Made by a program: the position numbers and the translations under genes. Below the pieces are notes generated by a model. That model was not told the origin of the DNA and ran no database searches. It saw only the letters and a program-made list of their open reading frames with translations. This document shows, in pieces, positions 54,281 to 60,585 of a DNA stretch of 64,000 nucleotides; position 1 is the stretch's first letter; each line of letters starts with the position of its first letter. The stretch is from an uncultured Clostridia bacterium (GTDB taxonomy: Bacteria; Bacillota; Clostridia; TANB77; CAG-465), in NCBI GenBank assembly GCA_947627255.1, contig CANQVI010000002.1:64047-128046 (forward strand). The letters are read 5' to 3'.

Positions 54281-54523
54281 AAAGAGGCAGTTTTTGCCTC
54301 TTTATTTGTAGCGTATTTATATAATGTACTTATATGCTTTTTACATATTATCTTTATATTTAAATATATTTAGTATTTCAGCCGCATCTGCTGTATCTAT
54401 TACTCCATTACCATCCATATCTCCTACAGCAATATCTTCTTCTGTCGCATTGCGATATTTAAATAAGTTTAAAGCTACTGCAGCATCTGCTGTATCTACA
54501 TTACCATTTCCATCTAAATCTCC
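54281..54523 (-). repeat. Dockerin plus 3' UTR plus terminator cassette, copy A
   Basis: Terminator aaagaggcagtttttgcctcttt, the conserved atttgtagcgtatttata, then the dockerin coding end. Aligns by eye with 57646-57883 and 60357-60585. Confidence 0.8.
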
Positions 54524-55153
54524 CATTATTTTTTCTTGTTCTGAATCAAGATTGAAACTGATTGATACAGTATCATTTACACTTCTATATGATAAGCTAT
54601 TATTTGCATATTCGCTTATAAAGAAATCTCCTTTATATGTTGCATATCTTTCTACTTCGTTTCCATAGTTATCTGTAAAGTTTACTAAAACTCTGTAACT
54701 TTCATTGCTACTTACGTCTAAGTCATATATTGTTAGATAATATACGTCACCATCTTCATATGTATCAACCTCAGTAGTAGCAACTATGTCACCATTGCCG
54801 TTTACTAGATTTACTACTGGTTTTTCTTTTAATACTTCAACTTTTCCATTGTAATTGTGATTTATTCTTATTGAGCCTATTAAAGATAATTCTGCATCAT
54901 CTTCAAACTCATCTCCAGCATAGCCACCAAATTCTTCATCTAAATCTAAACACATTAGACCATTAGTATGTGGCAAAATTGTATTAAATTGTAAATCTAG
55001 AAGCTCAACTGTATATTCGTCATCTTGTGTAATAGAATTCGATTGTTGTTTTCCTCCTGGAGCGAATGTTAAAGCGAAAACACAACTACATACTACATTA
55101 AGTACCATAGCAAATGTTACTATTGCAATCAATCTTTTACTAGTCTTTTTCAT
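54341..55153 (-). CDS. Secreted protein of unknown cargo with C-terminal dockerin
   Basis: Signal peptide, acidic beta-rich cargo, then GDLDGNGNVDTADAAVALNLFKY...GDMDGNGVIDTADAAEILNIFKY. Confidence 0.8.
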   Translation of the reverse strand: MKKTSKRLIAIVTFAMVLNVVCSCVFALTFAPGGKQQSNSITQDDEYTVELLDLQFNTILPHTNGLMCLDLDEEFGGYAGDEFEDDAELSLIGSIRINHNYNGKVEVLKEKPVVNLVNGNGDIVATTEVDTYEDGDVYYLTIYDLDVSSNESYRVLVNFTDNYGNEVERYATYKGDFFISEYANNSLSYRSVNDTVSISFNLDSEQEKIMGDLDGNGNVDTADAAVALNLFKYRNATEEDIAVGDMDGNGVIDTADAAEILNIFKYKDNM

Positions 55154-55178
55154 ATAATCATCACTCCTTTATATGATT

Positions 55179-55207
55179 ATATTATCATTAAAAAAAACAA
55201 TTTTCAA
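55179..55207 (-). promoter_or_regulatory. Promoter of the 54341-55153 gene
   Basis: Minus strand reads TTGAAA, 17-nt spacer (contains T8) ending TGA, then TAATAT. Confidence 0.55.
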
Positions 55208-55326
55208 TAGTATTTTAATAAATTTTTAGCTATTTTTAGCTATTTTTTTTAATAAAGAGGCAAAAAGTACATAAAAAAAGAAATAGCAAATTATATTTTT
55301 ACTATTTCCTCTTTATAACTTATATA

Positions 55327-57883: not shown

Positions 57884-60235
57884 TTTTAAGACACCACTAC
57901 CTTTTATTATTTCAAAATCTGCTGTAGCACTTCCTTCTTTATAGTTGTTAGTCTTTGCAGAAACTGCTTTTACAGTATATTTTCCTATAGTAGTTGGTAC
58001 TTCTTGGCTATATTCTGTATCTGGTTTTCCTTGCTCTTTATAATAATATGTAATAGTAGCACCAAATTTGTTTTTTACTACCTTAACATTTGGTTTTCTT
58101 CCTTCTTCTATATTGCTACATGTAATTTCTAATTCATTTTCAGCAGGTAATATGCTAAATTTTGCCCATATTGTTCTAGTTTTGTAATTATAGTTTTTAG
58201 GTACACTAACAGATACTTGTACATAATATTCTCCTGCATCTTTAGGCTCAGTTGTTGAAGCACCAGTTGTAGATTTAGTAGTATTATATTTTTTGCTTAC
58301 TATATTATATCCTGAATTGTTTCCAATAAGTTCTATATTTAATGGTTCAGAATATACACTATCTTTTACATTTATTGTAAAATCACTTTTTATTTTATTT
58401 ATTGTAAATTTTTTTTCTGTTGTACCAGAATATTTATTTATTCCTTTTACGATTACTTTAGGTGTTGTAGTATGTGCATTAATATTATCTTTATATTCTA
58501 CTGTATAATCTGTATTTGGTTGCAATATAACTCCACCATCTACTACTACAACTTCTGGTGTTTTTGGCTCTCCATCATAATCATATACAGATTGTTTTAA
58601 TACTATCATTCCTGGTAATATAACATTTGGAGTTTCTGGAGTATATGTTTCATATGATTTACTATTTGTTTGTGCCCATGTTTGTGCTGGTGAATTTTCT
58701 ACAACATAGAAATTTACTTTATTTGATGATCTAAATGCATTAGCATCAATATCTGACATACTAGATGGTATCATAACACCAGCTAAATTTCCACAAGCAA
58801 AAAATGTATCATTTTTTAAACTTGCATTACATCCTTCTTCAAATTTTACATATCTTACATATGAATTTTCAAAAGCTGCATTTCCTATTTCAGTAACAGA
58901 TTTTGGTATATTTATTCCATACATATTGCAGTATGCAAATGCATGTGGCTCTATTGTTGTTACTTTATCTCCCAATACTACACCTGTTAATTTGTTACAT
59001 TTATAAAAAGCATTTTCCTTTATTGTTGTAACATTATCATCTAAAACAACTACTCCTTCTTTACCTGGAGCACATAATATTACTTCTGTTTTATCTTTGT
59101 TATATAGTATTCCGTCTTCAAATGTATAATGCTCATTTTTAGGGTCTACATTAAATGTTGTTAAACTTTCACATTCACTAAATGCATATTTTCCTATTTC
59201 TTCTAAACTTTCAGGAATGTTTATTGTTGTTAAGTCTTTACAATCAGCAAATGCATAATCACAAATTTTCTTTACTGTACTTGGTAGTGTAACAGTTTTA
59301 ATAGCTGGTGCACCAGGTGTTCTTGCAGGTCTTTCAAATGAATATTCACCTATTACCTCTATTGGATAATCTGCTTTTCCATCTATTCTTTCTCTTGAAA
59401 ATTTATCTGGTACTGTAATATTTTCTTCAAAGCCATTATATTGTATTAAAAGAGGTGCTTTTGTATCTGCTTCCCAGCCAAATGTAAAGCCTCCTTCTTC
59501 TTTTTCTATTGTGTATGTTCTTGGTGCAGGTTCGTTATATCCAGCATCTATTGTGTAAACCTCACCATCTAGCATTGCTGTAACATTTCTGTGATTATTT
59601 CCAGCTCCTGGCTCAAATGCAGCATATCTTTCGTATGCTTTTATACCTACCATTTTACACATATTTATTATTGTCTGTGAACTTGCAATACAGTCTCCTT
59701 GACCTCTTAGTGGCATATATCTGTAGTCTGCTGTACCGCCATATTCATATTTAACTACAAAATCACAAATTTTTTCTATTTTTTGACGGTCAGTCATTGA
59801 ATCATTTATATTTGCTCTTACATATTCTCTATGCATATTATCTATATATGTATCTAAATAATCATGAACATTTACTTTTACTTCAAAATCTTCATTACCA
59901 ACAGAAACTGTTACTATACATTCTCCTGCCATGTAATCTCCAAAAGTGTTTCTTAGTGATATTAAACCATCTTCTGATATTTTTAAAATAGTTTGTCCTA
60001 CTGTATCAGTTGAATAGTCTGGTATTATATTTGTTCCTGTAACACTTAATTGATATGAATCTTTATATTCAGCTGGAATAGTTACACCCAACTCTTTTGC
60101 AGAGTCATCTAAAAAGTATAAATCTATTTGATTTGTATTAACTTTCACTTGACTCTGTGCGGCAAAAACATTATAACACGCAACAATTCCTAATGATAAA
60201 ATGAATACACATAATAATAATTTTACCTTTTTCAT
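57701..60235 (-). CDS. Secreted transglutaminase-like protein with BspA LRR, MBG-like repeats and C-terminal dockerin
   Basis: Signal peptide. Transglutaminase-like core GQGDCIASSQTIINMCKMVGI...NHRNV...IDAGY. LRR_5 repeats (LPSTVKKICDYAFADC, IPESLEEIGKYAFSEC). MBG-like YDYDGEPKTPEV...DYTVEYKDN. The dockerin is GDLDRNGQVDTADAAVALNLFKY...GDMDENGIIDTADAAEILNVFKY. Confidence 0.85.
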   Translation of the reverse strand: MKKVKLLLCVFILSLGIVACYNVFAAQSQVKVNTNQIDLYFLDDSAKELGVTIPAEYKDSYQLSVTGTNIIPDYSTDTVGQTILKISEDGLISLRNTFGDYMAGECIVTVSVGNEDFEVKVNVHDYLDTYIDNMHREYVRANINDSMTDRQKIEKICDFVVKYEYGGTADYRYMPLRGQGDCIASSQTIINMCKMVGIKAYERYAAFEPGAGNNHRNVTAMLDGEVYTIDAGYNEPAPRTYTIEKEEGGFTFGWEADTKAPLLIQYNGFEENITVPDKFSRERIDGKADYPIEVIGEYSFERPARTPGAPAIKTVTLPSTVKKICDYAFADCKDLTTINIPESLEEIGKYAFSECESLTTFNVDPKNEHYTFEDGILYNKDKTEVILCAPGKEGVVVLDDNVTTIKENAFYKCNKLTGVVLGDKVTTIEPHAFAYCNMYGINIPKSVTEIGNAAFENSYVRYVKFEEGCNASLKNDTFFACGNLAGVMIPSSMSDIDANAFRSSNKVNFYVVENSPAQTWAQTNSKSYETYTPETPNVILPGMIVLKQSVYDYDGEPKTPEVVVVDGGVILQPNTDYTVEYKDNINAHTTTPKVIVKGINKYSGTTEKKFTINKIKSDFTINVKDSVYSEPLNIELIGNNSGYNIVSKKYNTTKSTTGASTTEPKDAGEYYVQVSVSVPKNYNYKTRTIWAKFSILPAENELEITCSNIEEGRKPNVKVVKNKFGATITYYYKEQGKPDTEYSQEVPTTIGKYTVKAVSAKTNNYKEGSATADFEIIKGSGVLKGDLDRNGQVDTADAAVALNLFKYKNFTEDDIAIGDMDENGIIDTADAAEILNVFKYKGNV

Positions 60236-60266
60236 ATATCTTTCTCCTTTACAACCATATAATATT

Positions 60267-60295
60267 TATATATCACTAAAAAAATAAATTTTCAA
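60267..60295 (-). promoter_or_regulatory. Promoter of the transglutaminase-like/dockerin gene
   Basis: Minus strand reads TTGAAA, 17-nt spacer (contains T7) ending TGA, then TATATA. Confidence 0.55.
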
Positions 60296-60356
60296 TATAA
60301 TTTTATAATAATAGCTTAATAAAAAGTAACAAAAAATTAAAATAAAACACTAAAAT

Positions 60357-60585
60357 AAAGAGGCAAATTGTCTCTTTATTTATAGCGTATTTATATGCTT
60401 TTTTATACATTACCTTTATATTTAAATACATTTAGTATCTCAGCTGCATCTGCTGTATCTATTATTCCATTTTCATCCATATCTCCTATAGCTATGTCTT
60501 CATCTGTAAAATTCTTGTATTTGAATAGGTTTAGAGCTACTGCAGCATCTGCTGTATCTACTTGTCCATTTCTATCTAAATCTCC
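60357..60585 (-). repeat. Dockerin plus 3' UTR plus terminator cassette, copy C
   Basis: aaagaggcaaattgtctcttt, atttatagcgtatttata, then the dockerin coding end. Confidence 0.85.

Follow-up and report, generated by a model that had tools for sequence, protein, structure and literature searches.

Probable concerted evolution of dockerin modules and their 3' flanks in a tandem gene array of an uncultured gut Clostridia bacterium

In bacteria, interlocus gene conversion is known to drive the concerted evolution of paralogs, as in tufA and tufB of Salmonella and in the opa and pilE/pilS genes of Neisseria. All dockerins of a species have to fit one and the same cohesin, and they differ from the dockerins of the next species; how dozens of dockerin genes keep pace with each other has mostly been discussed as co-evolution at the protein level. 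The pdif modules of Acinetobacter plasmids, in turn, are cassettes bounded by Xer sites. Here we describe a tandem array of five dockerin genes from an uncultured gut Clostridia bacterium (G000; genome of 1.40 Mb, 26.5% GC), in which three genes with unrelated cargo end in the same block of coding and non-coding DNA. The array lies in a stretch of 64,000 nucleotides (contig CANQVI010000002.1 of assembly GCA_947627255.1; G000:C2:64047-128046), which is called the window throughout and to which all positions refer unless another contig is named. We consider it probable that the similarity of the three tails is a result of concerted evolution by interlocus gene conversion, acting within an old tandem array of genes for secreted dockerin-tagged proteins.

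The shared tail of three dockerin genes

The five genes, labeled A to E, are arranged head-to-tail on the minus strand at 54341-61647 in the order C-B-E-D-A. Each codes for a protein with a signal-peptide-like N-terminus and a two-repeat dockerin at the C-terminus, and each is read as monocistronic, with a promoter-like site being present for every gene. By motif scan, a pair of Ca-binding loop-helix repeats in tandem is C-terminal in all seven dockerin genes of the window, two of which lie outside the array on the plus strand (8623-12817), and in 11 genes of the genome, where one partial module accompanies the 11 full ones. Against the Dockerin_1 profile (PF00404, cut-off 22.9 bits) gene A scores 23.5 bits, and D, E, B, C and the further window gene G score 16.7-20.5 bits.

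The tails of A, B and C have in common about 235 bases, which begin with the codons for G-D-L-D at the dockerin start and end with the 3' arm of a hairpin (A, 54281-54523; B, 57646-57883; C, 60357-60585; minus strand). The block comprises the dockerin, the stop codon, a spacer of 25-37 nt (AAAGCATAYAAGTAC..ATATAAATACGCTAYAAAT) and the hairpin AATAAAGAGGCA-loop-TGCCTCTTTATT with the core AAAGAGGCA/TGCCTCTTT; part of what had been taken for a conserved untranslated region (UTR), ACAAAT, is an A-tract extension of the stem, which attains 15 bp in B. A prior reading of this DNA, made from its letters and without database searches (the sequence-only reading), had claimed that three genes with unrelated cargo end in such a block; its coordinates proved right, and BLASTP finds no similarity among the cargos of A, B and C. 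Self-BLAST aligns B with C at 87.7% identity over 269 nt, A with B at 81.4% over 301 nt and A with C at 84.3% over 210 nt, and the similarity between B and C begins abruptly at the dockerin. The 11 dockerin genes form 55 pairs; when the 65 nt following the stop codon were aligned for each, A-B (57/59 positions identical), B-C (52/56) and A-C (45/51) were the only pairs to stand out, with scores of 31-47.5 versus 20 or less for all other pairs. The string ATAAATACGCTAYAAATAAAGAGRCA, which spans spacer and arm, has exactly three occurrences in the genome. B and C contain an identical run of 71 nt; their dockerin peptides, previously described as identical, differ by an ED/DE swap, and the corresponding DNA shows 11 differences in 180 nt.

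A decayed version of the spacer and hairpin is found behind gene D, where both hairpin arms are kept, split by an insertion of about 45 nt with its own AT-rich terminator, and about 22 nt of the spacer are lost. The half hairpin arm that had been noticed at this place is real in so far as the 3' arm is concerned, but more than half of the hairpin survives, as a remnant of the 5' arm is also present. As a separate observation, in-frame readthrough past the TAA stop codon (54318-54340 in A, 57680-57700 in B; minus strand) would add K-A-Y-K-Y-I to the proteins of both A and B. The sole base difference between the two in this stretch is synonymous in that frame, and the stretch is absent from C owing to its deletion; the common peptide is probably due to chance.

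Gene A is a mosaic. The closest paralog of its dockerin core is D (91.5% nucleotide identity; proportion of synonymous differences, pS, 0.17), and from the last few codons onwards its tail, spacer and hairpin are B/C-like. In the 165-nt dockerin core A and B are 84% identical (pS 0.36), and in the 59 nt after the stop codon they differ at only two positions; put differently, 13 of 35 synonymous sites but 2 of 59 spacer sites have changed (Fisher P=2.9e-5). The mosaic structure of A, along with the better conservation of the A/B spacer relative to synonymous sites, argues for recombination between paralogs rather than simple descent. The earlier contention that selection at the protein level alone cannot explain the pattern is upheld. 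Whole-gene duplication followed by divergence of the cargo can be ruled out, as the cargos are unrelated and have orthologs of their own.

Dockerin modules across the genus and among strains

Other species of the genus have syntenic arrays in which the cargos of A, C, D and E have orthologs with 28-57% amino-acid identity. Conservation extends to the flanking genes, namely those for proteins of 207, 160 and 150 aa upstream and for proteins of 534 and 192 aa downstream, with the 534-aa protein showing 60-70% identity. Hence, these four cargo-dockerin fusions predate the species, and the similarity of the tails must be secondary. At the same time, the array genes of a species all carry a dockerin of a flavour peculiar to that species. 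A maximum-likelihood tree of dockerin DNA sorts strictly by genome: it has 9 label changes, which is the minimum, versus a mean of 18.7 upon shuffling, with none of 200 shuffles being as low, and a grouping by ortholog would need 17 changes; the G000 clade is supported at 99/99. Such a tree is the classical signature of concerted evolution. Between species the spacers from stop codon to hairpin are 5-118 nt long and unalignable, so that the identity of the A, B and C spacers reflects recent shared ancestry rather than a genus-wide constraint. A protein homologue search with gene C found no database relative between 100% and 39% amino-acid identity, and a related-locus search of genome contigs with gene D recovered only distant dockerins.

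Within the species, we examined 14 independent conspecific metagenome assemblies which were found by exact-protein look-up (some comparisons use 11 or 12 of them). Their differences from the window fall disproportionately in the dockerins: 8-11 of 183 nt versus 9 of 1062 nt of cargo in C, 12/180 versus 0/1380 in D and 12/174 versus 4/423 in E. As many as 65 of the 76 variant bases are found in another paralog at the homologous site. Among strains, B and C show one fixed difference and six shared polymorphisms, and within single strains the two modules are 2 to 18 differences per 180 nt apart. Gene C of strain L045 has 11 changes relative to G000, ten of which are at all ten sites distinguishing B from C and are to the B base (hypergeometric P=3.5e-15), and gene B of strain L044 is 98% identical to gene C of G000. 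The exchanged tracts map approximately to positions 30-120 of the dockerin module. Dockerin-module tracts of about 70-120 nt are still being exchanged within the species.

The extent of the current exchange is limited at its 3' end. The differences between B and C at site 171 and in the spacer (a 13-nt indel, a C/T difference and the loop) are fixed in all strains; hence, present tracts end before the spacer, whose common form in A, B and C is probably the trace of an older event. The idea that spacer and terminator partake in ongoing conversion is accordingly not sustained. The gene order C-B-E-D-A is retained in 14/14 conspecific assemblies, and there is therefore no cargo shuffling within the species. 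The sequence-only reading had coupled gene conversion with cassette shuffling; conversion is corroborated by the sorting of the tree by genome, the shared B/C polymorphisms and the whole-tract allele swaps, whereas no ongoing shuffling, capture or swapping of cargo is seen in the 14 assemblies. An observation that stands apart concerns the D dockerin of L047, L050 and L079, which has 11-12 changes versus none in the 1380 nt of cargo: seven of these match paralog A, and the others match no paralog of G000, for which an unsampled donor allele is the likely source.

Gene conversion and other explanations of the tail

If interlocus gene conversion is responsible, then an earlier event, after the split from the sampled relatives and before the divergence of the sampled strains, would have involved one or more tracts or replacements of 3' ends. 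The older tract or tracts would have started in the dockerin, continued past the stop codon and been resolved within the terminator common to all units or downstream of it, carrying one spacer onto A, B and C. Subsequently, the copy behind D would have decayed by deletion and insertion and that behind C by the 13-nt deletion. The terminator stem would have been inherited from the ancestral array and preserved because a stable hairpin is selected for at a GC content of 26%, with its retention probably reflecting selection for the few G-C pairs under AT pressure together with occasional homogenisation between copies. It is conceivable that the stem also acted as a downstream homology anchor, which allowed a conversion tract to carry the spacer between genes.

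Certain points weigh against this proposal. A longest-run permutation test in the style of GENECONV on the 11 paralogs of G000, which has low power on an alignment of 165 nt, was not significant (best p=0.05, uncorrected). Thus, the paralog test which the sequence-only reading had put forward does not favor conversion, and we rely on the strain data instead. These come from short-read metagenome assemblies, in which chimeras of paralogs are possible at the read level; to counter this, the same haplotypes were obtained from independent samples, synteny is preserved and the run of identity upstream of the exchanged sites measures only about 35 nt. Further, the spacers are near-monomorphic and the B/C differences in them are fixed and unshared, and here there is no direct sign of conversion as opposed to selection. 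Finally, the canonical stem shows no compensatory change in about 45 copies from 10 species, while loops and spacers have been randomised; the invariant stem fits frozen structural selection but is not proof of it.

The alternative that fares best, though we hold it to be rather unlikely, is in-situ replacement of the cargo, at least in B: a new body of the leucine-rich repeat (LRR)/BspA type would have been fused onto a pre-existing module, so that the tail would be retained or copied and not the result of later conversion. In favor of this, the cargo of B forms a family of one when the cargos of 10 genomes are grouped, without an ortholog in the arrays of nine related species, and it occupies the slot between C and E in which five relatives (G009, G013, G014, G020 and a Hadza metagenome-assembled genome) have an unrelated 600-aa family of unknown function. 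Its LRR_5 domain is also about 30% related to F and G, the two dockerin genes of the window outside the array, and the sharp start of the B/C similarity at the dockerin agrees with such a fusion. Against it, no turnover is visible in the constant gene order of the 14 assemblies, and there is no datable event or mappable junction, the nearest database relative (of gene C) being at 39% amino-acid identity. Moreover, A and C share the tail, yet have old orthologs with species-specific tails of their own, so that conversion is needed anyway. Both the B slot and the A ortholog, which has another position in G013, G014 and G009, are compatible with rare replacement or relocation of units over long times. 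The notion that new cargo is captured onto a fixed 3' module does not extend to A, C, D and E, whose fusions predate the species, and leaves the B slot as the sole exception, compatible with one replacement between species. Cassette shuffling between species is thus no more than weakly suggested.

Less probable still is the possibility that the spacer and hairpin constitute a functional RNA element under purifying selection, i.e. a stability or regulatory element of the 3' UTR or a small RNA derived from it. A block of about 60 nt is 97% identical between A and B compared to 84% on the coding side (10/15 in the last 15 nt), the DNA past the hairpin is also less alike, and the block is monomorphic in 12-14 strains, all of which might be expected of such an element. 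However, there are only three copies, all in one species, in nine other species the orthologous genes have nothing comparable between stop codon and hairpin, a deletion of 13 nt inside the block is fixed and tolerated in C, and no structure is predicted beyond the terminator. Likewise, a search of Rfam with positions 49000-64000 of the window at E<=1 gave no match, and neither did an exact-pattern scan for the spacer in metagenome contigs of JGI.

The hairpins themselves look like ordinary intrinsic (Rho-independent) terminators: they are predicted to fold with -14 to -20 kcal/mol (z of -4.4 to -6) and have U-rich tails, beyond which lie sigma-70-like promoters for the gene that comes next. 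A terminator scan returned 11 sites versus 2.5 expected, with the hairpins of A and B and that at 61761-61784 as the top three. The exact stem, AAAGAGGC-N2-10-GCCTCTTT, occurs in clusters in 19/49 genomes of the genus (0 for the reversed control): it is present in 14/14 genomes bearing the array, as marked by the ortholog of E of about 200 aa, versus 5/35 without it. In nine species it lies within 160 nt after 28 of 42 dockerin open reading frames (ORFs), most of the others running into the ribosome-binding site of the next gene, and it is also seen after non-dockerin genes at the array edges. The four copies in G000 all fall within 7.5 kb. At the level of the order, the same stem turns up singly in 54/150 genomes. 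Hairpins built as AAA-core-loop-core'-TTT number 69 in G000 and comprise 54 different cores, of which GAGAG recurs four times and GATGC three times at unlinked loci, which suggests that a limited set of stems is preferred in a genome so rich in AT. These reused cores sit in terminator-like hairpins, AAAGAGAG.. at C4:29415, C5:40469, C14:14316 and C31:12967, and AAAGATGC.. at C3:10477, C13:28509 and C20:12029. The terminator after the gene for a membrane AAA+ protein (49276-49296, plus strand; AAAGAGGTAATTATCTCTTT) is a canonical hairpin that has drifted by wobble and compensatory change, and the same position in G013, G014 and G021 has the exact canonical stem. At the array locus, an ordinary terminator, that of the 534-aa gene, has different stems in G000, G021 and G005, which by itself might hint at a sequence-specific role of the invariant canonical stem. 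On balance, the canonical stem is read as an inherited terminator of a favoured type that is common in the order. Several other identities of the stem can be set aside. It is not unique to dockerin arrays, given its single occurrences in the order and the reuse of other cores in G000. It is not a repetitive extragenic palindrome or bacterial interspersed mosaic element (REP/BIME), nor a miniature inverted-repeat transposable element (MITE), for which many dispersed copies, rather than four clustered ones, would be expected in G000. A loop of 2 to more than 10 nt and a distance of 13-94 nt to the next -35 box rule out an operator or activator site.

We see very little prospect for the proposal that the AAAGAGGC hairpin is a sequence-specific cis site which marks cassette boundaries in the manner of an integron or of pdif, with an Xer-like recombinase or the small upstream proteins as the factor. 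It draws on the clustering of the same stem behind most array genes in all 14 array-bearing genomes, on the synteny of an Xer-like tyrosine recombinase with the array in 9/9 species examined, on the A ortholog as a hairpin-bounded unit placed differently in G013 and G014 than in G000 and G021, and on the ordinary terminator of the 534-aa gene, which at the same locus has fully turned over between species. Yet neither a recombinase nor an operator of fixed geometry is compatible with the variable loop and hairpin-to-promoter distance, every gene comes with a promoter-like site of its own, and there is no cassette turnover in 14 strains. The recombinase (50797-51759) reaches 93 bits with the integron integrase model TIGR02249 (cut-off 265), its best matches being XerC and XerD, below their own cut-offs; it scores as Xer and lies at a switch in strand bias typical of a replication terminus. 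The stem, in addition, occurs singly across the order, other cores are reused unlinked, and the terminator of the AAA+ gene has drifted in G000. An integron- or pdif-like cassette system as the principal explanation is ruled out by the type of recombinase, the individual promoters and the constant gene order. A variant in which the AAAGAGGC/GCCTCTTT hairpin is a boundary element read by a factor of the locus (the small upstream proteins or the Xer-like recombinase), with promoter-gene-hairpin units replaced (B slot) or relocated (A ortholog) while conversion spreads one dockerin allele, appears just as improbable. Last, it is hardly credible that metagenome assemblers produced the repeated tails, or the conversions seen among strains, as chimeras, for although Logan contigs break at the start of the C dockerin, showing that the repeat disturbs assemblers, and B and C have their 71-nt identical run in G000, 14 independent assemblies agree in the order of the five genes and in the three tails, haplotypes recur across samples (L041=L043, L047=L078=L079, L074=L076), and with only about 35 identical nt upstream of the exchanged sites 30-99 a chimera would need two switches.

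Features of the array and comparison with known systems

The features of the array are collected in Table 1.

Table 1. Genes, dockerin modules, spacers and predicted signals of the dockerin array (window positions)
Feature	Position	Strand	Remarks
Gene C	60403-61647	-	414 aa; no Pfam cargo
Gene B	57701-60235	-	844 aa; cargo BspA-type LRR_5
Gene E	56988-57584	-	198 aa; no Pfam cargo found
Gene D	55327-56886	-	519 aa; cargo CAP + Big_2
Gene A	54341-55153	-	270 aa; no Pfam cargo found
Gene C dockerin module	60403-60585	-	tail KYKGNV, stop
Gene B dockerin module	57701-57883	-	tail KYKGNV, stop; swaps alleles with C among strains
Gene E dockerin module	56988-57161	-	without terminator; D promoter-like site follows at 56908-56936
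Gene D dockerin module	55327-55506	-	motif scan, Pfam
Gene A dockerin module	54341-54523	-	two Ca-loop repeats, tail KYKDNM, stop; motif scan, Pfam
Gene C spacer	60381-60402	-	13-nt deletion relative to B, fixed in all strains
Gene B spacer (3' UTR)	57673-57700	-	alignment
Gene A spacer (3' UTR)	54307-54340	-	common to B and C; invariant in 14 strain assemblies
Decayed spacer and hairpin behind D	55251-55326	-	5' arm remnant ATAAAGAGG 55308-55316; insertion of about 45 nt; 3' arm TGCCTCTTTATT 55251-55262
Gene C predicted terminator hairpin	60354-60380	-	5' arm G>A mismatch in G000; stem perfect in 7/11 strains
Gene B predicted intrinsic terminator	57640-57672	-	perfect 15-bp stem ACAAATAAAGAGGCA/TGCCTCTTTATTTGT, 3-nt loop; -20.1 kcal/mol, z -6.0
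Gene A predicted intrinsic terminator	54278-54306	-	12-bp stem AATAAAGAGGCA/TGCCTCTTTATT, 5-nt loop, U-rich tail; -18.1 kcal/mol, z -5.1
Fourth hairpin, same stem type	61761-61784	-	AGAGAGGC/GCCTCTTT; stop codon of the 150-codon ORF in the loop; just upstream of the C promoter
Promoter-like site of the 534-aa gene	54239-54267	-	TTGAAC-17-TATAAT with TG; 13 nt after the A hairpin; partly alignable with the region after the B hairpin

Some features of the neighborhood deserve mention. The gene of the 150-aa type has a comparable end in eight species (L021, L023-L026, L028, L051 and the window), of the form ..(K/R)E(A/V)x*, in which the last codons constitute the 5' arm and the stop codon lies in the loop. 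The terminator of the 207-aa gene (63044-63073, minus strand; orthologs in L021-L027) likewise overlaps the stop codon of its gene, with TAG within the stem (..GCTAG-loop-CTAGC..), and shows compensatory changes across species, unlike the canonical array hairpin. The Xer-like recombinase gene (plus strand; N-terminus MYDDIPNFL..; L021-L028) is flanked on both sides by convergent dockerin genes in G013, G014 and G009, and in G000 it lies at the strand-bias switch beside a 1-kb AT-rich region free of ORFs; judging from this sequence context, the switch is possibly the replication terminus. A Cheo/LexA-box-like motif, AGAACATTTGTT, is found upstream of the array-side NUDIX gene in G023, G007, G013 and G009 (L021-L025). 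In the window the exact motif AGAACNNNTGTT is absent upstream of the NUDIX gene, and the sole exact copy of AGAACATTTGTT (44460-44471) is inside the ORF at 44385-44948.

The genome encodes a potential partner for the dockerins, namely a Cohesin domain (PF00963) at G000:C28:495-827 with 39.3 bits (cut-off 24.1), and there is a weaker Cohesin match in a 532-aa protein, in a module which is paralogous to the cargo of gene E. This cargo (57162-57584, minus strand) is the most conserved member of the array, with 41-57% amino-acid identity across species, and is paralogous to the N-terminal module (G000:C3:20501-20908) of a protein of about 530-550 aa present in most array genomes, the module being the weak Pfam Cohesin match. 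Gene E may, on this basis, encode a cohesin-dockerin adaptor.

The array modules resemble the type I dockerins of cellulosomes (PF00404), whose cohesin partners are species-specific, in their C-terminal placement, in their two 22-residue Ca-binding repeats (D-x-D/N-x-D/N-G-x-I/V-D-x-x-D) and in being alike within a species and unlike those of the next, and a cohesin is encoded in the same genome. They differ in that their cargo consists of CAP, Big_2, BspA-type LRR and unknown domains instead of carbohydrate-active enzymes, in that the host is an uncultured gut Clostridia bacterium with 1.4 Mb and 26% GC, in that the dockerin genes form one conserved tandem array, and in that their Pfam scores are at or below the curated cut-off with the exception of gene A. 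With the attC cassettes of integrons and with pdif modules the array has in common genes of the same orientation, an imperfect palindrome after each and a nearby gene for a tyrosine recombinase. In contrast to these, it has no IntI-type integrase, a promoter-like site of its own for each gene and no cassette turnover among strains; its palindrome is 20-33 nt with a variable loop, compared to 57-141 nt for attC or the 11-6-11 arrangement of Xer sites.

Gene conversion as such is a known process, and the dockerin modules, in which one tract is read as having taken in non-coding DNA, are a clear new example of it; in the library of papers searched by full text, no relevant one joins dockerins with gene conversion or concerted evolution. 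Beside co-evolution at the protein level there is a mechanism visible in the DNA, by which short conversion tracts move dockerin alleles between the unrelated genes of an array on the time scale of strain divergence, and by which a new variant of the dockerin can reach every member of the repertoire. It is also a caution that conserved 3' UTRs behind paralogous modules are not to be read as regulatory RNAs. As in tuf, opa and pil, paralogs are closer to each other than to their orthologs, polymorphisms are shared, tracts are short and alleles are mosaic. We found no sign here of programmed antigenic variation. The array further differs from those systems in that only a 60-codon 3' module of otherwise unrelated genes is homogenised, and in that one past tract would have taken along the non-coding spacer up to the terminator.

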